A stretch of 15,612 bases of DNA from Archangiaceae bacterium (GTDB taxonomy: Bacteria > Myxococcota > Myxococcia > Myxococcales > Myxococcaceae), in contig JAYVCD010000451.1 of assembly GCA_043750125.1 (NCBI GenBank), positions 1 through 15,612 on the forward strand, read 5' to 3'. Positions 1 to 15,612 of the stretch are shown here, in pieces. Every line of letters begins with the position of its first letter. Position 1 is the first letter of the stretch. The notes under the pieces were generated by a model. It was given only the letters and a program-made list of their open reading frames with translations. It was not told the origin of the DNA and made no database searches. The translations under genes and the position numbers were made by a program.

Positions 1-1
1 G

Positions 2-1333: not shown

Positions 1334-1818
1334 CCGCTCTGAAAACTCTGGGGGCCGAGGCCTCGGACGCAGCCCTGAACGCGCTCGCGCGCCGGGTCAA
1401 GTCGCTGCGCGAGTCGCTGCGGCTGACTCAGGAAGAGTTCTCGAAGCGAATTGGAATCTCGGTTTCCTTCGCTTCGCTGCTCGAGCGGGGTGAGCGCGCT
1501 CCCAGCTACGAGACGCTGGTGGCGGTCGCCAGGGCGCTCGAGGTGCCGCTGGCCGAGCTGTTTCGCGACGGGGTCTCGGCCCAACCGGAAGACCGCTCGC
1601 ACGCGCGGCTGCTCGACTTTGCGCGCAAGGCCCAGCTGACCCGGGCCCAGGTGGATCGCTTCATCGCGGTCGGTCACGCGATGTACGGGCTGGATCACGA
1701 TCCCCGGGCGCGCGCCCGGACTCCGCAGCTGTGCGCGATCGAAGGGTGCGGTCGGGCGGTCTTGGCCCGCGCGCTGTGTGGACCGCACTACCACCAGCAA
1801 CGACGGCGCCGCGCCTGA
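1330..1818 (+). CDS. XRE/Cro-CI family helix-turn-helix transcriptional regulator with C-terminal C-x4-C-x9-C-x2-H finger
   Basis: HTH_3 pattern LARRVKSLRESLRLTQEEFSKRIGISVSFASLLERGERAPSYETLVAVARALEVPLAELF. C-terminal CAIEGCGRAVLARALCGPHY. GTG at 1330 overlaps the upstream stop (GTGA), so it is preferred to the 1267 start. Confidence 0.9.
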   Translation: MTALKTLGAEASDAALNALARRVKSLRESLRLTQEEFSKRIGISVSFASLLERGERAPSYETLVAVARALEVPLAELFRDGVSAQPEDRSHARLLDFARKAQLTRAQVDRFIAVGHAMYGLDHDPRARARTPQLCAIEGCGRAVLARALCGPHYHQQRRRRA

Positions 1819-1822
1819 AGCC

Positions 1823-2437
1823 CTAACTGCGGTCCAGCCTGGAAATCACCTTGCCCAGCCGCTCGAGAATCTTCTCGTCGCTGTCGAGAAACTCGAGCCC
1901 CATTCCCGGCTCGTTGCCGGTGGCGCGGACCCACGCGACGCGCGCGTTGAGGACCATCGAAGTCAAAGAGCCCGGCGGCCGCAGGTGGAGCTCGAGCATC
2001 TGTCCGACTTCGGCCGGCATCCCCGAACGCACGAACGCTCCGCCTTCGGACAAGTCGGCGAGGAACTCACGGCGCGTCACGCCCAGGTGGGTGATGCGAA
2101 TCTTGAGGTCCGTCATCAGCCGAACGGTTCCCCGGGTCGCGTCGAGGTCCAGGTCGGTGCGGGCGAAGGCCAGCAGCCGCTGGCTCGAGTCGTCCAGCGG
2201 GAGGAAGTCTACCCCGTAGCATTCCTTCAGGTTGCGCGAGCCTTTGTGGCGCGCCCAGGCCAGCTGGCCTTTGACGTTGAATTCGCGCTCCGGGCGCTCG
2301 ATTTTGACGCACAGCTCGATCAACTGCCCGAGCGCGCTGGGCACCGGGCCATCGACGGTCAGGCCCCCGAGCTTTCCGTTCGGGTAGAACCGCCGAAGGA
2401 TGTCGACGGGAAAGGCGACGGCGAGGTCCACGCGCAA
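1823..2437 (-). CDS. Tandem PilZ-domain protein (myxobacterial TIGR02266-like)
   Basis: Second domain has RGTVR (RxxxR), DLSEGG (DxSxxG), ARVAWVR and GMGLEFL. First domain is degenerate (GGLTV..GQLAWAR..YGVDFL). Start uncertain: TTG 2437 or GTG 2431 avoid overlap, while ATG 2503 overlaps the upstream gene by 44 nt. Confidence 0.85.
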   Translation of the reverse strand: MRVDLAVAFPVDILRRFYPNGKLGGLTVDGPVPSALGQLIELCVKIERPEREFNVKGQLAWARHKGSRNLKECYGVDFLPLDDSSQRLLAFARTDLDLDATRGTVRLMTDLKIRITHLGVTRREFLADLSEGGAFVRSGMPAEVGQMLELHLRPPGSLTSMVLNARVAWVRATGNEPGMGLEFLDSDEKILERLGKVISRLDRS

Positions 2438-2459
2438 GAAGGGCTCTCTGGCAACCTCT

Positions 2460-4553
2460 TCAGTTGCCCGGTACTGACTCCACGATGAGTGTGTTGTCGA
2501 CATGGGGCTCGCCGGCGATCAACCGGGCATGAAGCTTGGCGTGGCTGGCGAACATTTTTCCGTCGGTGAATACCCCGTCGGCGAAGAAGCCGACGGCACC
2601 GGCGGTGCGAATTGAGGGCATCACCTGCCACGTCGCTCCCCGTTTTGCCAGCTTGAGGTCACCTTTCGTGGCGTCCTGGTAGACAGCGTAAACCGACCCG
2701 GCGGTGGCCCCGAAAATGAGCGACGAATCGGTGCCCACCCAGTCCGACTCGCCCGAGGCGGCCGCGCCTGAGCCGGTGTCGATCGTCTCGGGGGTGACCC
2801 CGGTCTGCAGCTGGGCGGCGTAATAGAACTTGAGCTTCTTGCTGCTGAAGTCGTGGTACGCGATCGCGACGTTCTTCGTCGAAGGGTCGATCTTCACGTC
2901 CGGGAAATAGCCCGTGTCCCCCACGTCATCGAGCTTCACCAGCGGCCCCGGCACACCCGTCGCCGAGATCTTGATTCCGTAGAGGTCGCCGTCCGGGTTG
3001 AAGCGGGTCGCTCCCATCGGCGCGGGGGTGGTGCGCTTCATGAAACCGATGAACGCCTCTTTCCCGTTGAAGGCGATCGAAGAGAAGAGGCCGACCCCGT
3101 CGGTGATGTCGTTGAGCGTCGACGGGTTGTATTTCTTGGCGCACTTCGCCGCGGCGCCGACCGTGACGCAGGTCTCAGTGTTGGCGTCGCAGCCGGTGCA
3201 GGTGGTTGCCGGGGTGTAGCAGTCGGGCCCGATGCCCGGGTCGGCGCAGGTGTCGCTGGCCAGGCAGCTGAGGCAGGGGGGGGGGGGGCGGCTCTGACAG
3301 GCGAGCGTCTTCACCGTCCAGTCGCTGGCGCTCGAGGGCGTCGCGACCTTCGCGTGCGCGTATTTGAGCGCGGTGATGAAGCCCCGGGGGCCGGCCGGCG
3401 TGGGCAGGGGGCAGTCGGCGACGTTGAAGCTGGCCTCGGCGCCGCGCTGGAAATAACTGACGCCGGGCAGGCCGTCCGAGTCGACGGCGATCGATGAATA
3501 CAGGCCGAGCTCGGCGGTGTCCCCGTCGACCTTGTGCGAGGTCCACTGGCCCATTGCGTCTTTCACCGCGACCTTCAAATCTCCATGCGTCACATCGAAG
3601 TAGCTGACGTAGACGAGGCCTGAGTTCCCCGACGCGATGTCGGTGTAGCGGCCCACGTCGTCGCCCGGCTCGATGATTCCCCCCCGCGCTCCTGACGGCC
3701 CGAACTTCACCGCCGCCGCGGGAATGCCGTCGACGTAGTCGAGCCCGACCTTCACCCCGTTCAAGTCGAACCGCGCGACGACCAGGTCTCCGTATTGGCC
3801 ATCGTACTCCGAGACGTAGAGGCCTTTGCCCGCTTCGGCCGCGATCGCCGAGAACCGGCCGAGGTCTTCGGACTTCAAGCCGGGCAGCTCGGCACAGACG
3901 CATTTGACCAGCGGCAGGTTGCAGCTGTCCCAGATGTTCTTCGGGTCCTTGAAGGTGGCGAGGAATCCGGCGTTGCAGGTCATCGGACAGGCGGCCGTCG
4001 GGCGGCCCGTGGGTTGGGTGTAGTCCTGGCAGCGATCGCTGTCGGTGACGCAGCCCTTGCCCGCTTCGCAGGTGCCGCCGCAGGGAAGGTCGGTCAGGCA
4101 CTCGTTCGAGAAGCACGACTGGCCTTCGGGGCAGGCGCCCAGCGCGCCGCACGTCTTGTACTTGCAGCGGCTCGAAGTGCCGTAGACGTCCGAGTACACC
4201 TCGCAGAAGCGATCTCCCTTCTCACCGCAATCCACGTCCGTCTCGCATGAGAGGAACTTGTCGAAGCACTTCTTGCGCTCGGGAGGGCAGGTCTGGCCGG
4301 GGCAGCAATCGGCTTCGGTGACGCACTTGCGGTCTGTAAACACGCAGCACAGGACGCCAGCCTTGTCCTTGGGCGCTCCGCAGGTGAAGTGGTCGCCACA
4401 TTCGGCGCTGTCGACACACGCCTCATCGTGGCCGACCTGTTGTCCCGCGACGCCGCGGCACGTCTGGTCGGTGGGTTTCACCCCGTTGCCATTGCATTTG
4501 CACGCAGAGGTGACCACGCACAGCGACAGGGCCAGCCAGAACTTGGGAGACAT
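2460..4553 (-). CDS. Putative lipoprotein, 697 aa: N-terminal Cys-rich region plus C-terminal 7-repeat beta-propeller-like domain
   Basis: Signal peptide with lipobox-like TSA-C. About 200 aa Cys-rich region, then seven repeats starting DLGRFSAIA, DVGRYTDIA, ELGLYSSIA, GVGLFSSIA, DTGYFPDVK, WVGTDSSLI, AVGFFADGV, several ending in GDL-type strands. Confidence 0.85.
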   Translation of the reverse strand: MSPKFWLALSLCVVTSACKCNGNGVKPTDQTCRGVAGQQVGHDEACVDSAECGDHFTCGAPKDKAGVLCCVFTDRKCVTEADCCPGQTCPPERKKCFDKFLSCETDVDCGEKGDRFCEVYSDVYGTSSRCKYKTCGALGACPEGQSCFSNECLTDLPCGGTCEAGKGCVTDSDRCQDYTQPTGRPTAACPMTCNAGFLATFKDPKNIWDSCNLPLVKCVCAELPGLKSEDLGRFSAIAAEAGKGLYVSEYDGQYGDLVVARFDLNGVKVGLDYVDGIPAAAVKFGPSGARGGIIEPGDDVGRYTDIASGNSGLVYVSYFDVTHGDLKVAVKDAMGQWTSHKVDGDTAELGLYSSIAVDSDGLPGVSYFQRGAEASFNVADCPLPTPAGPRGFITALKYAHAKVATPSSASDWTVKTLACQSRPPPPCLSCLASDTCADPGIGPDCYTPATTCTGCDANTETCVTVGAAAKCAKKYNPSTLNDITDGVGLFSSIAFNGKEAFIGFMKRTTPAPMGATRFNPDGDLYGIKISATGVPGPLVKLDDVGDTGYFPDVKIDPSTKNVAIAYHDFSSKKLKFYYAAQLQTGVTPETIDTGSGAAASGESDWVGTDSSLIFGATAGSVYAVYQDATKGDLKLAKRGATWQVMPSIRTAGAVGFFADGVFTDGKMFASHAKLHARLIAGEPHVDNTLIVESVPGN
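3276..3288. repeat. G13 homopolymer (C13 on the coding strand, encoding R-PPPP)
   Basis: Direct read: aggca-ggggggggggggg-cggc, inside the 2460-4553 CDS. Confidence 0.9.
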
Positions 4554-4561
4554 GTATGCCC

Positions 4562-5095
4562 CTATAGCGCGCCAGCGTCGACTCGGGCGAGACGGTGCTC
4601 CAGCATCGCGGCGGGCTGGGGCAAAGCGGGAGTCTGGCAGCCCTCACCCACTGGAGTCGAGGTGGCCGAGCTCAAGGTGAGGGTGGAAGGCGTACAGGCG
4701 GTCACCCGGGTCTGAAAGCGCGCGGTGCACTCGCGCCCCGAAGGCAGCAGGGTGACGCTCTGGGCGATTCCGACGAAGCCCTCGGCCGTGCGTCGCAGGT
4801 GAACGACCGCGGTGGCCGGACTTCCTGCGTCTGCCACCGTCGCGCCGGCATCCTGTCCGCCCGAATCGAACACCCGGTAGACCCAGGCCGTCACGTCCTT
4901 GCGGTCGTCCTCGAGGTGGTAGCGGAAGGTCGGATCATCCTGGTGTTGCCATTCGCCGCTGAGCACACCGTCACACCCGGCTGGAATCTGAACGATGGGG
5001 GGCGCCGGCGGTGGGGGCGGCCTGGGGGGCGGGGGCACGGCCCGCGGGCAGCCGCACAGACAGACGAGAAGCATCCAGGCGGGCCGCGGGATCAC
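4562..5095 (-). CDS. Hypothetical lipoprotein, 177 aa, with Pro-rich tether
   Basis: GTG start, WMLLVCLCG-C lipobox-like signal, PPPPRPPPPPAPP linker, then a beta-rich domain with four Cys. Ends 8 nt before the next minus-strand gene. Confidence 0.75.
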   Translation of the reverse strand: MIPRPAWMLLVCLCGCPRAVPPPPRPPPPPAPPIVQIPAGCDGVLSGEWQHQDDPTFRYHLEDDRKDVTAWVYRVFDSGGQDAGATVADAGSPATAVVHLRRTAEGFVGIAQSVTLLPSGRECTARFQTRVTACTPSTLTLSSATSTPVGEGCQTPALPQPAAMLEHRLARVDAGAL

Positions 5096-5127
5096 GAGAA
5101 CGGCGAACCTTACTCAACGAATTGCCG

Positions 5128-5136
5128 TGGTACCCT
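5128..5136 (+). promoter_or_regulatory. Possible extended -10 element (TGG-TACCCT) for a leaderless PEGA transcript
   Basis: TGn-TAnnnT ends 6 nt before ATG 5143, and there is no Shine-Dalgarno upstream. Inference only. Confidence 0.3.
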
Positions 5137-5142
5137 TGCCGC

Positions 5143-6090
5143 ATGTCCTGGTCGAAAGTTCTGGTGCTTGCGCTGGGCGCTGTGTTGCTCGGCAGTTCCG
5201 CGTTCGCGCAAGACGACGACGATTTGATGCAGCTGAGCCCGAAGAAGAAGGTGGACCCCAAGGCGAAGCTGAAACCCAAAGCCAAGCCCCGGCCCCCGGT
5301 CGTCAAGCCCCCCCTCAGTTCGACCGACGACGAGCTGGCGCCGCTGACCCCCAGCAAAGCGGATCTGCTGCTGAAGCTGGCGGGGACTGCCATTCCCCGT
5401 CGGACCCGGGTCAGCATCGACGAGCGGGACGTGGGCCCGCTGCCGGTGGCCCCCCAGTCGCTGAGCGTCGGGGACCACACCGTGGCGGTGCGTGCGCCGG
5501 GCTACGCGACGTGGACGAAGAAAATCAGCATCGTCGCCAACAAACCGACCGAGGTGACCGTCGGGTTGGAAGCCACTTCGGCGATCGTGTCCGTCACCAC
5601 CGACGCGCCCGGCGCGCAGGTCGCGATCAACGGCAAATCGGTCGGGCTGTCTCCGCTCGAGGATCTCGAAGTCCTGCCCGGCACCACGACGATTACCGTG
5701 CGCAAAGAGGGCTACCGCGACTCGTCGCAGACCCTGAAGTTGATCCCGGGAAAGGAGTATCCGCTTTCGATCAAGCTCAGCCTGGCCCCCGTAGCCGAAG
5801 TGGCCCCCGACCGACCCGAAGCCCCGAACCTCGTTCCCCCGGCGAACGCAGACTTAGGCCTGGGGACCACCGTCGAACCCTCAGCTCCGGTCTACACCCG
5901 CTGGTACTTCTGGGTCGGAACGGCTGCGGTGATCGCTGCTGTCGCCGCGGGTACCGCCGTCGGAGTCAGCAGCAGCCAGCCCAAGCCGCTGGGCGAAAAG
6001 GCCATCTGCGGCGATAAGGGCTGCGACTCGTGCATCGGCTTCACGTGCATGACCTCGCCCGCGTCCGGAATCGTGCCGTTCAAGTTCTAG
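5143..6090 (+). CDS. PEGA-domain protein, 315 aa, with signal peptide and C-terminal hydrophobic segment
   Basis: Signal MSWSKVLVLALGAVLLGSSAFA-Q. Two PEGA-like repeats (VSIDERDVGPLP..GDHTVAVRAPGY; GAQVAINGKSVGLSP..PGTTTITVRKEGY). Hydrophobic segment PVYTRWYFWVGTAAVIAAVAAGTAVGV. ATG 5143 preferred to 5011, which overlaps the divergent gene. Confidence 0.88.
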   Translation: MSWSKVLVLALGAVLLGSSAFAQDDDDLMQLSPKKKVDPKAKLKPKAKPRPPVVKPPLSSTDDELAPLTPSKADLLLKLAGTAIPRRTRVSIDERDVGPLPVAPQSLSVGDHTVAVRAPGYATWTKKISIVANKPTEVTVGLEATSAIVSVTTDAPGAQVAINGKSVGLSPLEDLEVLPGTTTITVRKEGYRDSSQTLKLIPGKEYPLSIKLSLAPVAEVAPDRPEAPNLVPPANADLGLGTTVEPSAPVYTRWYFWVGTAAVIAAVAAGTAVGVSSSQPKPLGEKAICGDKGCDSCIGFTCMTSPASGIVPFKF

Positions 6091-6102
6091 CGACCGCCTT
6101 GC

Positions 6103-7423
6103 GTCGTCGCCCTGCTCGAAAATCCAAACCTCGCCGAGGTCGCGCTCACCCAGGGGGTGGACCAGGGGTTCGATTCGAACGGCCAGACGGTGCTTGCTGC
6201 AGAGGGCCGCGGTCTCGCTGCTGGAAGCCCAAATGCGGGCCCGCGTCAGCCGGGCGCGGGTCAATCGCGATGACCCCCATGATCCGTACAAGATCTTCCT
6301 CGCCAACGAAGCGGGGCGGCTGATCACCGGGCTGACCGACGAAGACGTGCTGGTCGAATACGACGACGACCTGCGCATCAAGCCGACCGCGCTGGCGCCC
6401 GCCGTTGCAAGCGCGCTCGAACCGCCCGCGCTCAAAGAGGTGACCGACGACCAACCCGAATCCACCGGGATCTTCGAGTTCGAGCAAAACCGATACCGCG
6501 TCAGCTACCGGTTGATCAAAGACACCTGGGGCTGGCGACTGGGAATCGTCGGCCCCGAGGACTACTACCGAAAGAGTTTGCGAGACCGGCAGCGGGCGAT
6601 GCTGTTGCTGATGTCGGCAGCCTTCGCTCTGCTCTTCCTCGGAGGGCCATCGCCGTACGCGTAATGCGCCAGGCGCTCGGTCAGATTCAACACGAGACCC
6701 AGGGGATGAGCCGGTTCAACTTCGCCGCTTCAATCGTGCGCTCGCCGTTCGCAGAAATTCGCCAGACGCTGTTCAGCCTCGAGCAGGCGAAGATCGCGGT
6801 GCGGGCGATGGGAAAGTACGTACCGCTGGCGCTGGTGCGAAAGCTGTTCGAGGAAAACCGCGAGCCGGCCCTGGGCGGAACGCTGCGCGAGGTGACCGTC
6901 TTCTTCTCGGACATCGAGGGCTTCACGTCGCGCGCGGAAGCAGAAGCGCCCGACCGGGTCGCGCAGTGGTTGGGGCTCTACCTCGAGGTGATGGCGACCG
7001 CGGTGCACGCCGAGCACGGAACAGTCGACAAGTTCATCGGCGACGCGGTGATGGCGCTCTGGAATGCTCCGGACGCGATTGAAAATCACGCGGTGCTCAG
7101 CGCCGACGTTCATCACAGCGCGCGCGGGCAGTTCGCGTTTCGCCGCCTCGACCTGGTGGCGGTGAAGGGCAAGTCCCAGGCGATCGCGGTCTATGAGCTG
7201 CTGGGCGAGCGAGATCAGCCTCACGTCATCACTCCCGAAATCGCGCGGTACGAACAGGCGCTCGAGCGGTACGTCGCCGGTGACTTCGAGGGAGCGCGCG
7301 CGCTGCTGGTTGCGAATCTGAAAGATCTTCCCAGCAAGGTCCTGGCAGAACGGTGCGGCGAGCTGCAACGGCACCCCCCCGGTCGGCCCCTGGGAAGGCA
7401 TCTCGTTCGCCCAGTCGAAGTAG
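6103..7423 (+). pseudogene. Degraded membrane-bound class III adenylate/guanylate cyclase (Cache-like sensor, TM, HAMP, cyclase, TPR-like tail)
   Basis: Cyclase motifs VFFSDIEGFT, VDKFIGDAVMALWNAP and VAVKGKSQAIAVYEL are present. Frameshift at ~6644-6646 splits the TM from the HAMP region (FLGG|AIAVRVMRQ). The RIGxHxG..GDxVNxAxR block is absent at ~7098/7099. A frameshift in C7 (7374-7380) hides the native-looking end WEGISFAQSK* (TAG 7421-7423). No start or first TM is found. Confidence 0.85.
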
Positions 7424-7425
7424 CG

Positions 7426-8004
7426 CTACTGGCCGCGCAGCTCGTCGCGCACCGAATCGGCCGAATCGATGACGACGAAGACGTCGGTGCAGCGGCCGAC
7501 TCCGTAGTTGTCGAGCACGGTCGCGCGCAGCTTCCACGGCCCTCTCTCGGGCACCAGCGACGAGAGGTTCACTTCACCCGCCTCGAAGTTAAACGCCTGG
7601 CGGCCGAGCAGGTCGATGCGGTCATTGCCCATGATCAACCCGTCGGTGAACCCGACCGCCGCACGATTGATGACTTTTCCGTCGGCCGTCAGCACCTCGA
7701 GCAGCACCACGTTGTCGAACGAAACGCCGCTGGTGGCCTTGTCATCGCCGAACAAGCGCACCCGCCCGCCGTTGCTCTCGAGCAGCCCGGTTTCTCCGCG
7801 GGCGACGACGTGCGCCTCGCGCGGCTGTTCCTTGGTGTCGAACTCGAGGTCCAGCCGCACCTCGATCAGCTTGGCGGTTTCTTTTTCCGGAGTGTCGTGC
7901 AGCAGCTGCACCGTGCTGGGCACCACCGGGTGCGTCTCGACTCGCTTCACACAGCCGCAGCCCAGCAGAAAGACGCAGAGGAAAGTGCGCATCGAGGCCC
8001 GCAT
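7426..8004 (-). CDS. Hypothetical lipoprotein, 192 aa
   Basis: Strong SD (GAGGAGGG) 8 nt before ATG 8004. Signal MRASMRTFLCVFLLG-C with lipobox. Only this part of the 7426-9219 ORF reads as protein-like. Confidence 0.8.
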   Translation of the reverse strand: MRASMRTFLCVFLLGCGCVKRVETHPVVPSTVQLLHDTPEKETAKLIEVRLDLEFDTKEQPREAHVVARGETGLLESNGGRVRLFGDDKATSGVSFDNVVLLEVLTADGKVINRAAVGFTDGLIMGNDRIDLLGRQAFNFEAGEVNLSSLVPERGPWKLRATVLDNYGVGRCTDVFVVIDSADSVRDELRGQ

Positions 8005-8039
8005 CTTGTCATCCCTCCTCAGTTTCGAACGGTTGGATT

Positions 8040-9230
8040 TCAGCGCACTTCGATGAAGAAGCTTTGCGAGGCGACAATCGGGAGGCCGAATTTTTCGGCG
8101 ATGCCCGCTTGAAGCTCGTTCGGCAGGCGCCAGGTCTGCCCTGAAATCTGCAACACGGTGATCGCGTAGCGGCCCCTGGGAATCGTCTTCAGCGGCTGCG
8201 GCGCGAGGGGGTTCGAGAGGTCGTACGCCTGGGGCTTGAGCACCAGCTTCAGGCGCGCCACCGGCACCGGCGTGGTCCGAACCATTCCGGTGATCGAATC
8301 GCTCAGCAGCGGGGCGAGGTCCGTCGGGTCGAAGCCGGCGGCGATCACCACCGCATCGGGCTTTCCGTCTGCCGCGATGGCCGCCCCGGTCATCGGGTTG
8401 ACGTGCTCGTAGTCTTCGCCCGTCGCGTCGAGCACCCCATTCTTGTCGAGGTCGTTCTCGTCGAGCAGCGGGTTGGCCCCGTTCGACAGCTTGCGCACCA
8501 GCACCTTCGGCCACATGTCCGGGACGCCGTCTTTGTTTGCGTCGTCGGGAATGCCGTTGCCATCGTCGTCGATGAATTTGGCGAGGAAGGCGGGTTGGGC
8601 CTGGTGGATGACGCCGACGTTGATCGGCAGCGGCTCGAGCTCGAGGACCTGCGGGCCGGCAGAGGCGGTGAGGACGTAGGACGCCAGGCCTCCGACGATG
8701 TCGAAGCTCGGTCGGTCGACGGGGACCAGCGCGGTGTCCCCGAAGCTCACCGGAACATCGAGGGCCGGGCTCTTCACTTCGACGAGAATTTCCCGATTCG
8801 CGCGGGTGGTCGGCTCGATCGCCGCTCCGCCAACGTCTCCGGCGTTCACCTGCGAAGTCACGTCGTACCAGGGGATGAAGTCGACGTTGCTGTCGATGAA
8901 GCCCCGCACCAGGTATTTTCCAGCGGGCACGAGGCTGAAGGCGAACGGCGCCGTGAAGGGCCCGGTGTCTCCGTCCAGAGCCCGGCCGAACACTTCGTCG
9001 CGGGACAGCACGGTGAAGCTGACGGGCCGCCCGCTGCCCGCGGGCGGAGGGGGCCGCGCCGCGTCGAACAGAAAGACCACCACGTTGCCGCGCGCTTTGC
9101 TCGAGACCACCACCGAGCCTTCGATGCGCGACAGCTCGGTGTTCTGACGGCGGTCGGCGGTGGGAAAGACCGGCGGCGCATCGCACCCCAGCAACACAGC
9201 GGACAGCAGGCAGGGCCACAGCGCTTTCAT
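8040..9230 (-). CDS. Putative lipoprotein, 396 aa, with Dx[DN]x[DN]G calcium-binding-like loops; candidate TBDR partner
   Basis: ATG 9230 overlaps the receptor stop (ATGA). Lipobox LLG-C. Prealbumin/Ig-like pattern (RIEGSVVV..PFAFSLVPAGKYLVRGFID). Acidic loops DDDGNGIPD, DANKDGVPD, DLDKNGVLD. Confidence 0.85.
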   Translation of the reverse strand: MKALWPCLLSAVLLGCDAPPVFPTADRRQNTELSRIEGSVVVSSKARGNVVVFLFDAARPPPPAGSGRPVSFTVLSRDEVFGRALDGDTGPFTAPFAFSLVPAGKYLVRGFIDSNVDFIPWYDVTSQVNAGDVGGAAIEPTTRANREILVEVKSPALDVPVSFGDTALVPVDRPSFDIVGGLASYVLTASAGPQVLELEPLPINVGVIHQAQPAFLAKFIDDDGNGIPDDANKDGVPDMWPKVLVRKLSNGANPLLDENDLDKNGVLDATGEDYEHVNPMTGAAIAADGKPDAVVIAAGFDPTDLAPLLSDSITGMVRTTPVPVARLKLVLKPQAYDLSNPLAPQPLKTIPRGRYAITVLQISGQTWRLPNELQAGIAEKFGLPIVASQSFFIEVR

Positions 9231-11725
9231 GGAGTCACCGAGATCGTCGCGAACACGCGGCGGTTGACCAGATTTCCAAACGGATGCTCTGCGTGGGTCG
9301 GGCCCAACTGCGAGCCGACCACCGCGACGGTCACCCGATCTTTCAACAGTCGGTAGCCGATTCGCGCGTTGATCACCGCGTAGCCCCCGAGGGCATTGCT
9401 GACATTCGAGATGCGCGTCGGGTCTTCGGCCGCCGGCTCGCGCTCGACCCAGGTCGTGGACGAGGTGTACGCAGCGTCGATCGAGAAATCGAGGTTCACC
9501 GGGGTCTGGTACCAGATGCCGCCAAACACCTTGACCGTGGGCGCCTGGCTGCAGGGGCCACACACCGCGGTGGTGTTGCTGGCGATGTTCTGGATCGCCG
9601 TCGACAACCGAAGATCGAGCCCGGTGATGATGCTCCACTTGAAGCCGAGCTCGCCGCCGCGGGCGGTGTAGGTGACCGGGTCATTTTGAAAGACCGATCG
9701 CCCCAGCAGGTACGACTGGCTGGTCGGGTCGTACGCTTGATCTGCCGACACCGGATTCACCGCCGTCAGCGCGATCAAGCTGTCGACCACGTTCCAGTAC
9801 AGCGCGAGGTCGTATTCCAGGCCCAGCCGGGCCAGCTCTCCGCGCCAGCCGACTTCGAACGCGAGCATCCGCTCGGGCCGCAGGGTGCGCGCGCCCTGGG
9901 TGAGCACTGAGGCCCCATTCACCCCCGGCACCGGGGTGCGGATCTCCATGTAGCTCTCGAGGAAAGTCGGTTCGCGAAACGCGGTCGCGAAGCTGGCGCG
10001 CAGGGCCTGGCCTTCGACCGGCTGCCACAGCAGCGACAGCCGCGGCGACTGGGCGTAGCCGGGTTTTCCGTTGTCGAGCAGCGGGTGGTAGTCGATGCGG
10101 TAGCTGCCGAGCAGGGTGAGCGAAGAGATCGGCCGGTACTCTTCCTGGACGAAGGCGGCGCCGTGAATTTCCTGCTGCAGCGGCCCGGTGAAGGTCCAGG
10201 CCAGCCGCTTGAAGCGCGACGAGATTCCCGCGGTCAGCCGGTGCGTTCCGAGCAGGGTGAAGTCGTGCTGAAACACCGCTTCGGCGTCGAAGACATTCGA
10301 TTCCAGAGTGGTCGCCAGCGAGCGCTGTCCGATCGGGGAGTACTGGGGGCCCGCGGCGGCCGACAGGTAGTTCCAGAACAGCTTCACCTTCACCGGGCCG
10401 ACCGAGAGGTCGGTTTTCACGTAGCCGACGACGCCATCGAGGGAGAAGTTTCGCAGCAACCCCAGCGGGTAGATCTCGGTGTAGACCCGGTTGATCCCGG
10501 CCGAGGCGCTGACGTTGGCGGCCCTGGAAAACGAGAACATCGTGGTGAGGTTGGCGCGGGCCGAGCGCATTCCCAGCGAAGGGCTCACCCCGTGAGAGGT
10601 CACGTCGGGCCGGTTTTCTTCGTAGTCGCGACTGAACTTGTCGGCTTGCCCGTAGCCGACCGAGGCGCGGTACCGCAGCCGGTCGCCTCCCGACCCGACG
10701 AAGCTTCCTCCGGCGGTGTTGCTGCTGCCTGCCCAGCCAGTGAATGAGGCCCGCGGGCCGGTGCCCGGGGAGCGGGTGATGATGTTGATCACCCCGAGCA
10801 TCGCGTTCGCCCCGTACAGCGCGCTGCCCGGCCCGCGAATGACTTCGATGCGTTCGATTTCGTCGAGCCCGACCGGGATCGCCGGCCACAGCGTCAGCCC
10901 GAGGAAGTCCTGATACTCGGTGCGCCCATCGAGCAGCACCAACACCTTGTTGGCCAGCCGCTGGTTGAAGCCGCGGATGCTGACGTTGTAGCTGCCCACT
11001 CCCATCGCCATCACTTCGGCGCCGGGCACGCGGCGCAGCAGCTCGGGCAGGGTGGTCGCTCCGGACATTCGAATTTCTTCGGCGGTGATCACCGTCGTCG
11101 CGTTGGGCGCTTCGAGGCTCGACTGGGCCCGTCGCGACGCGGTGACGACGGTCTCTTCATACGGAACGGCCGAGGTGTCTTCGACCAACTCGTCGGGCCC
11201 TTCGGGGTTGGTCCTCGGCTCGGCCCGCGGCTTTTCGGCCTCGCTGGTGCGCGCCTCGGCCCGGCTGACCGCATTCTCGAGGCGCTCGGCCAGTGCGTTC
11301 AGGCGGGCCACCGTCGCTTCGTCTGTCGCGGAAGAGGAGACCTTCGGCTCGTCCTTTCGCGGTCGGGTCTCGACCCGGGCGGGCGGCTCTTCCTTGCGCG
11401 GCAGCTTCGCTTCCAGCCGGGCAATCGCCTGCTGCACTGCGTTCGCATCAGGCGGGTCGGTGTCCAGATAGGCGCGGTAGTTGAGCAGCGCATCGACCGG
11501 CCGCCCCGCGCTCTCGTAGGCCTTGGCCATGTTGTAGAGGACGTTCGGGTGCGGCTTGATCTTGTACGCCGCGCGCAGCTGTTCGATGCCTTCGTCCAGC
11601 CGGCCGTCGTTGATCATCGCCATTCCGATGCGGAAGCGCTTTTTGGCTTCCTGGCGGGCGTCGGCAAGAACCAGCGTGGGGATCAACACCAACACCACTG
11701 CCCACCAACGATTGAGACGAGTCAC
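9227..11725 (-). CDS. TonB-dependent outer-membrane receptor, 832 aa, with N-terminal TPR-like domain
   Basis: Signal peptide, then TPR-like helices (EAKKRFRIGMAMINDGRLDEGIEQLRAAYKIKPHPNVLYNMAKAYESAGRPVDALLNYRAYL). TonB box-like EETVVTASR. Plug signature IERIEVIRGPGSALYGANAMLGVINIIT. Barrel motifs ATAFREPTFLESY and LRPERMLAFEVG. GTG overlaps the kinase stop (GTGA). Confidence 0.93.
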   Translation of the reverse strand: MTRLNRWWAVVLVLIPTLVLADARQEAKKRFRIGMAMINDGRLDEGIEQLRAAYKIKPHPNVLYNMAKAYESAGRPVDALLNYRAYLDTDPPDANAVQQAIARLEAKLPRKEEPPARVETRPRKDEPKVSSSATDEATVARLNALAERLENAVSRAEARTSEAEKPRAEPRTNPEGPDELVEDTSAVPYEETVVTASRRAQSSLEAPNATTVITAEEIRMSGATTLPELLRRVPGAEVMAMGVGSYNVSIRGFNQRLANKVLVLLDGRTEYQDFLGLTLWPAIPVGLDEIERIEVIRGPGSALYGANAMLGVINIITRSPGTGPRASFTGWAGSSNTAGGSFVGSGGDRLRYRASVGYGQADKFSRDYEENRPDVTSHGVSPSLGMRSARANLTTMFSFSRAANVSASAGINRVYTEIYPLGLLRNFSLDGVVGYVKTDLSVGPVKVKLFWNYLSAAAGPQYSPIGQRSLATTLESNVFDAEAVFQHDFTLLGTHRLTAGISSRFKRLAWTFTGPLQQEIHGAAFVQEEYRPISSLTLLGSYRIDYHPLLDNGKPGYAQSPRLSLLWQPVEGQALRASFATAFREPTFLESYMEIRTPVPGVNGASVLTQGARTLRPERMLAFEVGWRGELARLGLEYDLALYWNVVDSLIALTAVNPVSADQAYDPTSQSYLLGRSVFQNDPVTYTARGGELGFKWSIITGLDLRLSTAIQNIASNTTAVCGPCSQAPTVKVFGGIWYQTPVNLDFSIDAAYTSSTTWVEREPAAEDPTRISNVSNALGGYAVINARIGYRLLKDRVTVAVVGSQLGPTHAEHPFGNLVNRRVFATISVTP

Positions 11726-13251
11726 TGGTACGGGTCGTCCTTGTAGCCCGGCGGGTTGGGTTCGCTCTTCTTCACGGTCGGCTTCTTGATTTTGACCAAC
11801 GTCTGCTTCACCACGACCGCTGGCGCGGGGCCCTGGGCGGTGACGGTGACACTCTGGTAGCCCTCGAGCGCGAGGGTCAGGTCGGTCGAGGCCAGATGAT
11901 TTGCCCCGGGCAACAGCGAAAAATTCAACGGCGTCACCCCGAGCAGAACGCCCAGACGGATCACACTGGCCCCCGCAGGAGTGGTCGAGACCAGGAAAGA
12001 AATCGGCGAATCCGCCTCGGGCGGGGCCTCGGCCTCTCGGGGCGAGACGGCGAGCGAGGCCGGAGGCTTGATCGCCACTGCCGGCGGGGGCCCGGACACT
12101 TCAGGGCTGCGCAGAGCGAAAAAGAGGACCCCCAGCGCCAGCACTGCGAGCACGAGACCCGCGGCGATCCCGATCTGGCGCTGACGGTTTTTTCTCGCTA
12201 CCGGGCCGGTGTCTTCCCAGGGAATCTCGATTGCCCCGGTGGGCCGACCGGCGCGCGTCAGCTCGGCGGGGGTCATCAGCATCGACGGCGAGACCACCTT
12301 CACCGCCTGCGACGACGAGGTCCGGTAGACCATCGAGCGCGGGTCGGCGAACGCTCCCGACATTCCCGCGTTGGCGCCGGTCAGCTGCAGCGCCTCGAGC
12401 AGCTCTTCCATCGATTGAAAGCGGAGGGCGGGTTCCTTCTCGAGGCACTTCATCACCAGGGCGTTCACTTCGACGGGCAGGTCGGGCACCAGGGATTTCA
12501 GCGACGCCGGCTTCTCGCGAATGTGTTTGACGATGATGTCGATCGATTCTTTCCCGGTGAAGGGGGGCTTGCCTCCGATGCATTGGTAGAGCAGCACGCC
12601 CAGCGCGTAGATGTCGCTGCGGGCGTCGGCCTCGTTGCGTGCCTGCTCGGGCGCCATGTACAGCGGCGAGCCGAGCAGGACCCCGGCCTGGGTCAATTCG
12701 TTATCGGTGGGGGACAGTGGCCCGTCGGGCAGCAGCGACTTGACCAGGCCGAAGTCGAGCACCTTCACCATCTCGGAATCGGTCTCCTCGGTCAGCAGCA
12801 TCACGTTCGCGGGCTTGAGATCGCGGTGGATCATTCCCGCCTTGTGCGCTTCCCGCAGCGAACGGGCGATCTGCCCTGCGATGTGCAGCGCTTTGGGCCA
12901 GGGAAGAATCAGGTCCCGGGCCAGCCGCGCCTGGAGCGTCTCGCCTTCGACGTATTCCATCGCGATGTAATAGATGCCGTCGTCGGTGCGGCCGTAGTCG
13001 TGGACGGTGATGGTGTTGGGGTGGTGCAGCTTCGCGGTCATCGCTGCTTCGAGGAAGAAGCGGCGTTCGAAACCGGGGTCCTTGGTACCCGAATACCGGG
13101 GGTTCAAGACTTTCAGCGCGACAATGCGGTCGAGCGGCGACTGGAGCGCCTTGTACACCTTCCCCATCCCGCCCACGCCGAGCGGTTCGAGAATTGTAAA
13201 TCGCTCGTTGAGAATCTTGCCGATGAGCGGATCCGGCGACAACTCAGCCAT
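11722..13251 (-). CDS. Membrane-anchored Hanks-type Ser/Thr protein kinase (Pkn-like), 509 aa, with extracytoplasmic PEGA-like domain
   Basis: LGVGGMGKV, VALKVL, HRDLKPAN, DFG, YMAPE and DIYALG are all intact. TM IGIAAGLVLAVLALGVLFFAL. PEGA-like STTPAGASV..LLGVTP..LEGYQ. Tail GYKDDPYQ. ATG 13251 has a GGGGA SD upstream. Confidence 0.95.
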   Translation of the reverse strand: MAELSPDPLIGKILNERFTILEPLGVGGMGKVYKALQSPLDRIVALKVLNPRYSGTKDPGFERRFFLEAAMTAKLHHPNTITVHDYGRTDDGIYYIAMEYVEGETLQARLARDLILPWPKALHIAGQIARSLREAHKAGMIHRDLKPANVMLLTEETDSEMVKVLDFGLVKSLLPDGPLSPTDNELTQAGVLLGSPLYMAPEQARNEADARSDIYALGVLLYQCIGGKPPFTGKESIDIIVKHIREKPASLKSLVPDLPVEVNALVMKCLEKEPALRFQSMEELLEALQLTGANAGMSGAFADPRSMVYRTSSSQAVKVVSPSMLMTPAELTRAGRPTGAIEIPWEDTGPVARKNRQRQIGIAAGLVLAVLALGVLFFALRSPEVSGPPPAVAIKPPASLAVSPREAEAPPEADSPISFLVSTTPAGASVIRLGVLLGVTPLNFSLLPGANHLASTDLTLALEGYQSVTVTAQGPAPAVVVKQTLVKIKKPTVKKSEPNPPGYKDDPYQ

Positions 13252-13302
13252 CTCATCCCCCGCGGTGCAAAGGCGCGCCGCATCGAGGGGATTTAGCACG
13301 CG

Positions 13303-14146
13303 TTAGCCGAAGAGGCTCTTTTGCGACGAGTTCCAATTGAACCCTGGAAACGCTCCCGCAGGGTCGGGCAGTCCCAGGTGGACGCCCAGGATTTCTGCGA
13401 GGACCTGACGGATGTCGGTCGTGGCCTTCAGGTCTCTGTCCTCGTGCAACGACGCGAGGCCGGGCCAGCGGCCGTACACCTTGCCGCCGTTCACTTTTCC
13501 GCCAAAGACGAAAAGCGCCGAGGCGGTGCCGTGGTCGGTGCCCCGGGTGCCGTTCTCTCGGGCGGTGCGGCCGAACTCGGTCATCGTCACCAGGCAGACG
13601 TTTTCGAGCGCCTCGCCGAGGTCCTGGGCGAAGGCGGCCAGGCAGCCGATCAGCAGCCCGGCGACCTGTCTTGGTCTTCGCCGCGTAGACGGCGTCGGTC
13701 CACATTCCTGGCGCGGTGAAGATCGCCCGATAGGTGGCCCGAAGATCGCCGTCGGCCCGAAGGAACTCTGCGGCCACCCGGTCGACCAGGGCTTGAGGAG
13801 GATTGTCCGAGACGAGTTGTCGAGGTAGAACAGCATCGCGGGGTGCTTCGACGTGGCCCCGAGCAGGTCGCGAAAGCGCCCGAAGACGTGCAGTCGAATC
13901 GCGTCGCGCTCGTAGGCTCTCACCATCCACCGGGTGCGGCCCTTCTGGGCCGAGACGTTGAAGTGGTTGAACCAGAAGTCGACCAGCACCTCTTCGAGCT
14001 GCCGCTTCGAGTTGGCGGCCCGCAGCAGCCGGGCCTGGGTGGCCTCGAGCACCACCTGGCGAGGCAGCTCATCGCGCCCGGGCGGGTGGGGGGACAACCA
14101 CGCAACCGACGAGAGTCAACGCCACCAGTGGTCTGAGCGAGAACAC
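13303..14146 (-). pseudogene. Collapsed DUF1800 + DUF1501 gene pair (four remnant segments)
   Basis: (1) GTG 14146 MFSLRPLVALTLVG-C signal/lipobox. (2) DUF1800-like RQLEEVLVDFWFNHFNV..GRFRDLL..HPAMLFYLDN. (3) In another frame, DUF1800-like VSDNPPQALVDRVA..DGDLRA..AKTK. (4) DUF1501-like C-terminus LAAFAQDLG..MTEFGRTARENGTRGTDHG..GGKVYGRWPGL..RDLKATTDIR, stop at 13303-13305. Confidence 0.85.
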
Positions 14147-14153
14147 AGGGTTG

Positions 14154-14180
14154 ATTACACCCGGGGCGGCAAAAGGTTCG
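14154..14180 (-). promoter_or_regulatory. Candidate ECF-sigma promoter for the DUF1800 locus
   Basis: Minus strand CGAAC-CTTTTGCCGCCCCGGG-TGTAAT gives AAC-N16-TGTA, the same geometry as SigW-type TGAAAC-N16-CGTA. Lies just before GTG 14146 and next to the ECF gene. Confidence 0.45.
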
Positions 14181-14233
14181 ATTTTGAAAGGGCGTTGAAA
14201 CCAAGTGGCGCTCAGGCGCACATTGGGGACCCC

Positions 14234-14821
14234 GTGCTTCGGTTGCTGCGAAAAAGTGTGCCCGTCGAGGAGACCCCCGAAGCGGGGTTGGTGCGTCGCG
14301 CGCAAGACGGGGAAGCCGACGCGTTCCGGATCTTGTTCGAGCGCAATGTGACGGGCGTGCGTCGCTTTCTGGGCGATCTGCTGAAGGACGCGTCGGCCGC
14401 CGACGAGGCGACGCAAGAGACCTTCGTGCGCGCCCACTCTCTGTTGGGGCGGCTGAAAGACCGCGTTCGGCTGCAGGGTTTCTTGCTCGGCATCGCACGC
14501 AACGTGGCGTTCGAGCACCACCGTCGCGGACCGACGATGGAATACGTCGAAGACGAAGCGACGATCGAAGCCGTGTTGCCCGCGCCAGATCCGGAAACGC
14601 TGATGCTGGATCGCGAGCTGGCCGAAGCGTTCGCCGGAGCGTTGTCCGCGCTGAAGCCCGAGCGCCGCGCGGCTTTGCTGATGCGGGTCGATCACGGACT
14701 ACCGTACGAAGAGATCGCCGAAGCGATGGGTTGGTCGCTGCCGACGGTCAAGAACGAGATTCACCGGGCACGGCTGAAGTTGCGGCAGCTGATGCTCCCT
14801 CATGTGGGAGGCCGATCATGA
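14234..14821 (+). CDS. RNA polymerase ECF-type sigma-70 factor, 195 aa
   Basis: Region 2: LVRRAQDGEADAFRILFERN..AADEATQETFVRA..FLLGIARN. Region 4: ALSALKPERRAALLMRVDHGLPYEEIAEAMGWSLPTVKNEIHRARLKLR. GTG 14234 has GGGGA upstream. Confidence 0.93.
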   Translation: MLRLLRKSVPVEETPEAGLVRRAQDGEADAFRILFERNVTGVRRFLGDLLKDASAADEATQETFVRAHSLLGRLKDRVRLQGFLLGIARNVAFEHHRRGPTMEYVEDEATIEAVLPAPDPETLMLDRELAEAFAGALSALKPERRAALLMRVDHGLPYEEIAEAMGWSLPTVKNEIHRARLKLRQLMLPHVGGRS

Positions 14822-15288
14822 GCCGCTGTGGAAAGACCGAAGGTTTGGATGCGCTGGTGCTGGGTGAGCTGAGTGTCGCCCAGGCCACTGTGTTGGAGCT
14901 TCACACCTCGCGCTGTGCGGTGTGCCACCACGAGCTCAACTGGCTGAAGACCGAGCGGGTGATGTTCGAGCAGCGAATCGCGCGGGAGCAGGTGCAGCAG
15001 CTGTGGGAAGGGTTTGCGGCCAAGCGCGCAGTGCCGATTCGGCAGCGCACCTGGGGGCGGTGGGCGATGGCGATCGGCGTGGCCGCGTCTGCGGTGCTGA
15101 TGGTCGGGCTGTCTGCGAAGGGACGTTCTGGGTCGCTCGAGCAGGGCGAAGCCTTCGAGCTGAAGATGTCGCTGGAAGAGATGTCGCGGGACATGGGCTC
15201 GCCGCGCGACTGTTCGCAGCTGCAGCCCGGAATGGGGTTCGCCTGCGGGCCGTATCTGCCGGCGAGCTTCGTTGCGCAACGAGAGTAG
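14818..15288 (+). CDS. Zinc-binding (ZAS / zf-HC2-type) transmembrane anti-sigma factor, 156 aa
   Basis: ATG overlaps the sigma stop (ATGA). HxxxCxxC motif (HTSRCAVC). TM WAMAIGVAASAVLMVGL. Short C-terminal domain with two Cys. Confidence 0.85.
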   Translation: MSRCGKTEGLDALVLGELSVAQATVLELHTSRCAVCHHELNWLKTERVMFEQRIAREQVQQLWEGFAAKRAVPIRQRTWGRWAMAIGVAASAVLMVGLSAKGRSGSLEQGEAFELKMSLEEMSRDMGSPRDCSQLQPGMGFACGPYLPASFVAQRE

Positions 15289-15463
15289 GGTTCACATCCC
15301 AGGTGGGCACTGGGGGTGGACTGACCCCGCTCCATTTTGCACAACGGTTCGTTGACGCTGAATCCCGCCGATTTCCGGTAAGCCCCTGAAGCCGCTGGCG
15401 CGCTGGTTTTGAAACCTGTCGGGTATTGTGCGTATCGGCATCGCTTTTTGAGTTTGACGCTCT

Positions 15464-15479
15464 TGGCTTGAGCGTTGCT
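15464..15479 (+). promoter_or_regulatory. Candidate sigma54 (-24/-12) promoter
   Basis: TGGCTTGAGCGTTGCT has GG-N10-GC with TGGC and TTGCT matching the TGGCAC-N5-TTGCW consensus, 46 nt before ATG 15526. Confidence 0.55.
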
Positions 15480-15525
15480 CCAGGTGGTCGCGATGTTCAC
15501 CCAATTAAACCGTGGAAGGGCAACC

Positions 15526-15612
15526 ATGAACCTCCGGAAAGCCATTCTTGTTGTTGTGTTCCTGGCTGCTGCAACGGCGACTGCGCAAACCGTAACCGCG
15601 GAAAAGACGGAG
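15526..15612 (+). CDS. Secreted protein (3'-partial; only the signal peptide is visible)
   Basis: GGAAGGG SD, then MNLRKAILVVVFLAAATATA-QTVTAEKTE, a Sec signal with an A-x-A cleavage site. Runs off the window. Confidence 0.7.
   Translation, partial: MNLRKAILVVVFLAAATATAQTVTAEKTE

Follow-up and report, generated by a model that had tools for sequence, protein, structure and literature searches.

A conserved kinase, TPR-bearing TonB-dependent receptor and lipoprotein triad in myxobacteria: a candidate route from an outer-membrane receptor to a Ser/Thr kinase

Genes and proteins of the cassette

We analysed a 15,612-nucleotide stretch of DNA from an Archangiaceae bacterium (GenBank assembly GCA_043750125.1, contig JAYVCD010000451.1, positions 1 to 15,612), hereafter called the window. 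It corresponds to contig C451 of an assembly that totals 6.17 Mb, is split into 460 contigs and is 89% complete. The subject of this study is a gene cassette at positions 7426–13251 that encodes a Ser/Thr kinase, a TonB-dependent receptor with an N-terminal tetratricopeptide repeat (TPR) extension and two small lipoproteins. Open frames and their translations delimit four intact genes, all on the minus strand:

11722..13251, minus strand: kinase of the Hanks Ser/Thr receptor type (509 residues; Pfam Pkinase, 8.9e-45)
9227..11725, minus strand: TonB-dependent receptor with N-terminal TPR extension (832 residues; plug and barrel)
8040..9230, minus strand: lipoprotein 1 (396 residues; lipobox LLGC, Cys16)
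7426..8004, minus strand: lipoprotein 2 (192 residues; single beta-sandwich)

An earlier note on this DNA had described four intact co-directional genes, the first three joined by GTGA and ATGA overlaps, and this observation is confirmed by the frames. In the GTGA at 11725–11722, the stop codon of the kinase shares bases with the GTG start of the receptor, and in the ATGA at 9230–9227 the stop codon of the receptor shares bases with the ATG of lipoprotein 1. Lipoprotein 2 follows after a gap of 35 nt, with a Shine–Dalgarno-like GAGGAGGG ahead of it. The GC content at third codon positions is 0.84–0.86 in the kinase and receptor frames, and therefore supports both frames as coding. A scan of 7200–13600 for promoters and terminators yielded none beyond the shuffled expectation.

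The kinase has the following parts:

12400..13197, minus strand: catalytic domain, residues 19–284 (Pfam Pkinase, 8.9e-45)
12112..12174, minus strand: predicted single transmembrane helix, residues 360–380, hydrophobic stretch IGIAAGLVLAVLALGVLFFAL
11779..12006, minus strand: predicted periplasmic PEGA domain, approximately residues 416–491 (extent by a hidden Markov model (HMM) built here)
11725..11748, minus strand: C-terminal tail GYKDDPYQ, residues 502–509, the proposed docking peptide

The ATG start at 13251 agrees with the alignment of orthologues (alignment A2). The protein contains the full set of motifs of a Hanks-type Ser/Thr kinase (G-loop, VAxK, HRDxKxxN, DFG and APE), here as the G-loop at residues 25–32, VALK at 44–48, HRDLKPAN at 142–149, DFG at 166–168 and APE at 200–202, and these residues are invariant in 15/15 orthologues. 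The transmembrane helix and the topology were taken from the translation by eye, as was the sorting of the lipoproteins described below. The helix is followed by a Pro-rich stretch (residues 386–416) and then by the PEGA domain. The Pfam PEGA model (PF08308) matched the window kinase at residues 420–470 with 19.3 bits, just below its cut-off of 20.8, and was found in 15/15 orthologues at E ≤ 0.01 (best 1.6e-7); the domain is thus assigned via the orthologues, the window protein by itself being marginal. A Lys-rich linker joins PEGA to the last eight residues, GYKDDPYQ, of which K504, P507 and Y508 are invariant in 15/15 orthologues (A2).

The best NCBIfam match of the kinase was NF033483 (PknB/Stk1), with 312.8 bits compared to a cut-off of 450 and covering residues 10–380 only. 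No PASTA repeats were found in the kinase with Pfam, and it falls outside the PASTA kinases of NF033483. Like PknB/Stk1, it comprises a cytoplasmic Hanks domain, one transmembrane segment and an extracytoplasmic sensor part, but its ectodomain consists of PEGA and the tail instead of PASTA repeats.

The receptor can be divided as follows:

11402..11662, minus strand: TPR module of two repeats and a capping helix, residues 22–108 (Pfam TPR families, PDB matches)
11252..11317, minus strand: conserved linker helix LxxLxxRLExAVxRAE, residues 137–158 (alignment A1)
11123..11164, minus strand: TonB-box-like region PYEETVVTASRRAQ, residues 188–201 (alignment A1)
10790..11113, minus strand: plug domain, residues 205–312 (PF07715, 2.2e-22)
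9230..10594, minus strand: beta-barrel, residues 378–832 (PF00593, 5.2e-27; match 378–801)

A signal peptide of 21 residues precedes the TPR module. Several Pfam TPR families match residues 29–104, with TPR_14 (25.1 bits) above its cut-off of 23.5, and over positions 29–97 a profile made from 15 receptor orthologues hits crystal structures of consensus TPRs (for example CTPR3, 2.2e-11), which identifies the module as a TPR domain. Pfam gave no STN domain (PF07660) in the receptor at E ≤ 0.01, with the TPR families there instead. Beyond the module lies a low-complexity linker containing the helix at residues 137–158, which is conserved in Myxococcaceae-type orthologues only. The motif at residues 188–201, which we take to be the TonB box, includes EETVVTA at 190–196; E191 and V194 are invariant and the adjoining residues nearly so, and the NCBIfam CirA and BtuB models start aligning at residues 185–190. 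The plug and barrel matches both exceed their cut-offs, so that the protein is a TonB-dependent receptor, and the nearest solved relatives of its profile are CirA (1.5e-43) and BtuB. The TPR extension of the receptor is present at E ≤ 1e-5 in 146 clusters of the protein collection, and the names among the 120 clusters listed are generic (TonB-dependent receptor, iron complex outer-membrane receptor protein). Named strains of Myxococcus, Corallococcus, Pyxidicoccus and Hyalangium are among the bacteria with this receptor. The receptor ends in ...VTP (9230–9238), as do most Myxococcaceae-type orthologues; the more distant ones at loci L027 and L028 end in F and that at L026 in L. A non-aromatic last residue is unusual in an outer-membrane barrel.

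Both small proteins have a predicted signal peptide that ends in LLGC at residues 13–16. All aligned orthologues share the lipobox Cys (C16 in alignment A3 for lipoprotein 1, C18 in alignment A4 for lipoprotein 2), and from signal peptide and lipobox Cys, as read from the sequence, both proteins class as bacterial lipoproteins. Neither matched a Pfam or NCBIfam family. The AlphaFold2 (AF2) model of lipoprotein 1 (pLDDT 73) is all-beta, with tandem beta-sandwich domains and Asp-rich loops, and that of lipoprotein 2 (pLDDT 82.7) is all-beta with one sandwich. Fold searches returned only generic Ig-like or pilin-like matches for lipoprotein 1 (TM-score <0.3) and nothing at E ≤ 0.001 for lipoprotein 2. 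The profile of lipoprotein 1 had a single weak match among PDB sequences (E = 0.019), and its Atlas leads were weak as well (carboxypeptidase-regulatory-like and DUF3823, 0.79–0.86).

Conservation of the triad and recurrence of the TPR module

A strong receptor orthologue (E <1e-90) was found in 22 of the 40 relatives searched, comprising 19/24 of the same family and 3/16 from other families of the order. Sixteen of the 22 orthologue loci were fetched (10–20 kb each), while the other six lay on short, cut contigs. A co-directional kinase gene is situated upstream of the receptor in all 15 relatives with upstream DNA, at receptor identities down to 36–39%, and lipoprotein 1 lies directly 3' of the receptor in 16/16.

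Public genomes, one per species, were scanned with the receptor alignment, and the resulting 79 loci were tallied by script. The names of these relatives are myxococcotal, e.g., Archangiaceae, Myxococcus and Corallococcus. The TPR extension is present in 52 of the receptors (46 informative, six with short upstream DNA) and lacking in 27. A co-directional upstream kinase was found at 41 of the 46 informative TPR-receptor loci, compared to none of the 22 loci (from the 27 without the extension) that have at least 2.5 kb of upstream sequence. The association of TPR extension and kinase adjacency has a Fisher p of 2e-13, a value that is overstated because the genomes are related. Kinase-bearing loci include some labelled Labilithrix, Sorangium, Polyangium and Byssovorax, with receptor identities of 33–36%. 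Downstream, a gene resembling lipoprotein 1 is present at 38 of the 47 TPR-receptor loci with enough sequence on that side. The earlier note had staked its proposal on kinase adjacency being kept among homologues of the TPR-bearing receptor, and these counts show that it is conserved. The flanking genes change completely while the triad of kinase, receptor and lipoprotein 1 stays. The conserved unit is thus the kinase, the TPR-bearing receptor and lipoprotein 1, kept across myxobacteria.

Three contigs with a TPR receptor (L043, L061 and L067) come from metagenome bins that bear the labels Rickettsiales, Enterobacterales and Cognaticolwellia. L061 and L067 have the kinase, and the upstream DNA of L043 is too short to tell. 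These odd labels may reflect mis-binning or mislabelling rather than transfer.

The lipoprotein 1 gene is multiplied in some lineages among the relatives and public loci, as two to three tandem copies or as one frame of ≈1400 residues with repeated modules:

L027, 5198–9400: multiplied lipoprotein 1
L071, 9968–12760: multiplied lipoprotein 1
L086, 1926–4730: multiplied lipoprotein 1
L044 and L068: multiplied lipoprotein 1

Lipoprotein 2 behaves differently. It is found inside the fetched locus in only 5/16 relatives, always 1–5.5 kb beyond lipoprotein 1, and in five further genomes that contain the triad it lies on another contig (three genomes) or was not found (two). The genes in between vary. 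The gap contains a 2OG-Fe oxygenase and an ornithine-cyclodeaminase-family gene in L017, an insertion sequence (IS)-type integrase in L015, and in L014, from the same genus, ≈5 kb (11818–16958) with DUF4190, a hybrid histidine kinase, a FIST protein and a cyclodeaminase remnant. The four-gene appearance of the cassette in the window is therefore the product of a local deletion, and lipoprotein 2 stands outside the conserved unit, which comprises three genes. The earlier note had proposed both lipoproteins as accessory subunits; lipoprotein 1 keeps this place as the conserved third gene, and lipoprotein 2 was dropped as a subunit in view of the variable gap and its absence from the locus in these five genomes.

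In distant orthologues, no part of the receptor is better conserved than the TPR module, which has a mean identity of 41.6% compared to 35.0% for the barrel and was the more similar of the two in 28 of 30 cases. This fits a constant protein partner for the TPR module and a diverging ligand site in the barrel.

The C-terminal tail of the kinase is likewise retained. Of the 41 upstream kinases at the public loci, 35 have a tail of the form [YFWT][KR]x2-3P[YF], placed at the C-terminus or one residue away from it, with variants such as GYKDDPYQ, GFKDIPY, GYKSNPFD and YKGNPY, and it persists at loci where the PEGA or periplasmic part escapes tblastn. The tail, [YF]-K-x-x-P-[YF], is phylum-wide, which has to our knowledge been a point new to this study. 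Within this assembly, the cassette kinase is the sole open reading frame (ORF) with a [DE][DEN]PY ending. In counts uncorrected for phylogeny, one TPR position (position 57, in I-K-P-H-P) is K or R in 34/34 pairs with acidic tails, YK[DE][DN]PY, and non-basic, mostly Leu, in 23/23 others; this may hint at a correspondence between module and tail class, in a split that largely follows phylogeny.

We built an HMM from the 15 receptor TPR modules alone and ran it on the ORFs of this genome. It matched small ORFs directly 3' of three other kinases, on contigs C11, C85 and C94 (L108, L110 and L109). These stand-alone periplasmic partners start with a signal peptide, continue with the TPR module, to which PEGA is added in some, and have a hydrophobic segment at the C-terminus. 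The kinases next to them all possess PEGA and tails of the Pro-aromatic type (KELKDLPD, GQVDPFN and STIDPFSE). A second HMM, for PEGA, was made from the cassette kinases alone. It recognized seven of the 36 ORFs with kinase motifs in the assembly, and a TPR-module ORF directly follows 4/7 of these PEGA kinases compared to 0/29 of the others (p = 6e-4). A further pair of kinase and TPR module occurs in L018. Orthologues of the C11 TPR–PEGA protein in the relatives have an upstream kinase at 14 of 30 loci, five others having less than 1.2 kb of upstream flank, and the tails of these kinases include KELKDLPD, DDLKDAPF and EDLKDAPY. The closest PEGA-kinase paralogue in the genome, on C339, has neither a tail nor a TPR neighbour. 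The kinases on C11 and C51 also have an N-terminal FHA-like domain.

The same TPR module thus occurs on the receptor and on stand-alone partners of PEGA kinases, which is the second point new here. Judging from the sequences, the receptor seems to have acquired the partner domain of the kinase. As the module is found separately beside kinases and fused on the receptor, the arrangement provides a Rosetta-stone argument that receptor and kinase are functionally linked. There is also a second family of TonB-dependent receptors, with frames of 877–973 residues, in which the N-terminus matches the TPR and PEGA of the stand-alone partner (G010:C218, L122; G011:C156, L124; G012:C1:4908892, L137).

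Candidate signalling from the receptor to the kinase

The reading that we prefer, with a probability of about 0.5, is that the cassette encodes a TonB-dependent transducer whose signal passes to a Ser/Thr kinase by contact between the TPR module and the kinase tail, with lipoprotein 1 as an accessory. The receptor would bind and import a ligand, and lipoprotein 1 would probably assist it, either as an accessory or by binding the substrate. Its TPR module, carried in the periplasm on a flexible linker of ≈80 residues N-terminal of the TonB box, would dock the periplasmic end of the kinase, most likely the invariant C-terminal tail behind PEGA. A ligand- and TonB-dependent movement of the receptor N-terminus would then change the activity of the kinase in the cytoplasm. 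The sequences themselves show the order of the genes, the architecture and conservation of the domains, the association of the TPR module with kinases and its occurrence as a separate partner of kinase paralogues. We infer that TPR module and tail touch, that the signal runs from outside to inside, what lipoprotein 1 does and all steps beyond the kinase. With the triad and the kinase adjacency conserved and lipoprotein 2 set aside, the interpretation in the earlier note is, as a whole, partly supported.

TPR domains clamp C-terminal peptides in Hop/CHIP, which hold EEVD, and in PEX5, which holds PTS1. The cassette resembles these in that one protein ends in a short, invariant motif and its partner carries a small TPR module, and differs in that the pairing would be periplasmic and bacterial, with two repeats and a cap, the binding being hypothetical. 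A complex prediction for receptor residues 22–200 and kinase residues 399–509 (A1, A2) speaks neither for nor against binding (score 0.22, mark 0.32). A broader proposal, which we advance tentatively, is that myxobacteria may use a periplasmic docking code, in which the tails of PEGA kinases would be recognized by a dedicated two-repeat TPR module, either on small membrane-anchored partners or as an extension of TonB-dependent receptors. The receptors extended in this way would then represent a class of transducers with Ser/Thr phosphorylation as output instead of an extracytoplasmic function (ECF) sigma factor.

Several observations weigh against signalling through a TPR–tail contact. The cassette is not universal, a receptor orthologue having been found in 22 of the 40 relatives searched, and five TPR-receptor loci (L051, L053, L056, L066 and L077) have no kinase within 4.6–7 kb upstream. 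In L077, an FHA/sigma-54 activator is found upstream of the receptor in the kinase's stead. The tail is off-motif or masked in 6/41 upstream kinases, and C51 (L111) encodes a tailed PEGA kinase with no TPR neighbour. Counts based on the tail are partly circular, since the pattern was widened after the tails of the paralogues were known; the PEGA-based count is free of this circularity. In the second receptor family, an upstream kinase is present in L124 and there is none within 1.5 kb in L137, the flank of L122 being too short. No output regulator is encoded near the cassette in relatives, the FHA-type activator occurring only in L077. Finally, the periplasmic contact between kinase and receptor is proposed from the co-occurrence of genes and domains.

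The same point counts towards a different explanation, namely that the cassette is an uptake module. The receptor and lipoprotein 1 would import a nutrient, and the kinase would sense the product or envelope stress via PEGA and regulate expression without touching the receptor, while the TPR module would serve lipoprotein 1, peptidoglycan or a TonB-family protein. Consistent with this, the receptor has the usual core of a CirA/BtuB-like transporter and a putative TonB box, and a lipoprotein gene right after a TonB-dependent transporter is a common layout for uptake; the five loci without a kinase fit as well. SusC/SusD-like pairs consist of a TonB-dependent transporter and a downstream lipoprotein, and in the cassette the lipoprotein gene is likewise translationally coupled to the transporter gene, but lipoprotein 1 has no membership, by sequence or fold, in SusD or any named family. 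Uptake leaves unexplained why the same TPR module stands separately after PEGA-kinase paralogues that have no receptor nearby, and why kinase adjacency tracks the TPR extension and not the barrel (41/46 compared to 0/22). We consider this explanation somewhat doubtful, and the strongest of the alternatives.

Alternatively, the influence could run from the cytoplasm to the outer membrane, with the periplasmic arm of the kinase holding or gating the receptor via the TPR module, and controlling, for example, its positioning, its assembly, or transport or secretion. The co-occurrence evidence is the same as for signalling towards the kinase, and the sequences show no direction. The layout of the kinase, with a transmembrane segment, a Pro-rich linker and a small domain, resembles that of TonB. 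The Myxococcus TonB-dependent transporter Oar works in protein secretion and not in uptake (PMC6434023). However, the complete set of catalytic residues suggests a signalling output over a purely structural role, and we regard such inside-out control or tethering as unlikely. That the adjacency is merely inherited gene order with no functional link is already disfavoured and most improbable: many of the compared genomes are related, so that the counts are not independent, but the order is kept at 33–39% receptor identity in Myxococcia- and Polyangia-labelled genomes with wholly changed flanks, start/stop overlaps or short gaps are common in the public loci, and the TPR module recurs beside paralogous kinases.

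The preferred reading, that of a transducer coupled to a kinase, invites comparison with the FecA–FecR–FecI systems of cell-surface signalling. As in those transducers, the cassette receptor carries an additional domain in the periplasm, in the position of STN ahead of the putative TonB box and on a long linker, and a neighbouring gene encodes a single-pass signalling protein of the inner membrane with a periplasmic C-terminal part. The cassette differs in having TPR and not STN, and a Hanks kinase with PEGA and a tail in place of FecR; no ECF sigma factor is conserved with it, and no part is homologous to its counterpart. A conserved FecR/FecI-type pair beside the cassette was not found among the 16 relatives, a sigma/anti-sigma pair in the window being shared with L014 only. 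As the receptor has no STN and the cassette no such pair, the likeness is an analogy and not membership. The suggestion in the earlier note that TPR replaces STN and a kinase replaces FecR holds for the topology, with TPR N-terminal of the TonB box and the same module beside PEGA-kinase paralogues, but not in the sense of homology.

Oar-type transporters of Myxococcus, with their CarboxypepD_reg extension, are likewise myxobacterial and have an N-terminal extension other than STN; in the cassette receptor, the extension is TPR. In a census of 34,893 TonB-dependent transporters, five N-terminal architectures were formed from CarboxypepD_reg, STN, AMIN or none of these, and neither TPR nor tetratricopeptide appears in the main text of that paper (PMC6434023). 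A search of the full-text literature, with most subscription journals outside its scope, turned up no account of a TonB receptor coupled to a kinase or of pairs of PEGA kinase and TPR protein. The cassette is probably a hitherto undescribed link from an outer-membrane receptor to protein phosphorylation.

The described route for TonB receptors runs from STN via an anti-sigma factor to an ECF sigma factor, and wiring to a Hanks kinase, if true, would add a second one that works by an unrelated mechanism. Myxobacteria have many orphan Ser/Thr kinases, few of them with a known signal, and some of these would also gain a definite input. The pairing of tail and TPR involves a peptide and a domain of ≈90 residues, and could, if true, account for the way in which dozens of PEGA kinases meet their partners in the envelope. 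Where a census applies Pfam thresholds, signalling modules can go unnoticed on receptors that it scores as having no N-terminal extras.

Genes around the cassette

Two further candidates for the output were considered and rejected. One was the ECF sigma/anti-sigma pair of the window, located ≈1 kb from the cassette on the opposite strand:

14200..14821, plus strand: ECF sigma gene
14731..15288, plus strand: possible anti-sigma gene, overlapping the ECF gene (185 residues, Cys/His-rich N-terminus, no Pfam match)

As this pair recurs only in L014, it was dropped as a part of the cassette. The other was the FHA/sigma-54 activator as a conserved output; among 70 sequences (69 cassette loci and the window), it is found only in L077, together with an unrelated FHA stretch in L018.

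On the other side of the cassette, a block at 1823–6090 includes a PilZ gene (1823–2503, minus strand), a gene for a 697-residue protein (2460–4553, minus strand) and one for a secreted PEGA protein (5011–6090, plus strand). This block adjoins lipoprotein 2 in L015, L016 and L017 (with PilZ in L017 only), and L014 has the PEGA protein only. As the block stays by lipoprotein 2, this gene belongs more there than to the cassette.

Two neighbouring genes are decayed. At 13303–14097 (minus strand), an ORF of 264 residues joins part of DUF1800 (model positions 63–147 of 419) to part of DUF1501 (274–379 of 390). In L015, the DUF1800 and DUF1501 halves have separate matches, ≈1.9 kb apart, and the ORF in the window looks like two adjacent genes fused by an internal deletion. 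At 6194–7400 (plus strand) there is a broken adenylate/guanylate cyclase, with its N-terminal and cyclase parts in separate ORFs that meet at 6664. The catalytic domain covers only model positions 7–80 of 183, and its frame runs on antisense into lipoprotein 2; the cyclase of L014 is a remnant of 75 residues. Together with the difference between the ≈5 kb that separate lipoproteins 1 and 2 in L014 and the 35 nt here (8005–8039), the two broken genes show that the region has undergone several deletions.

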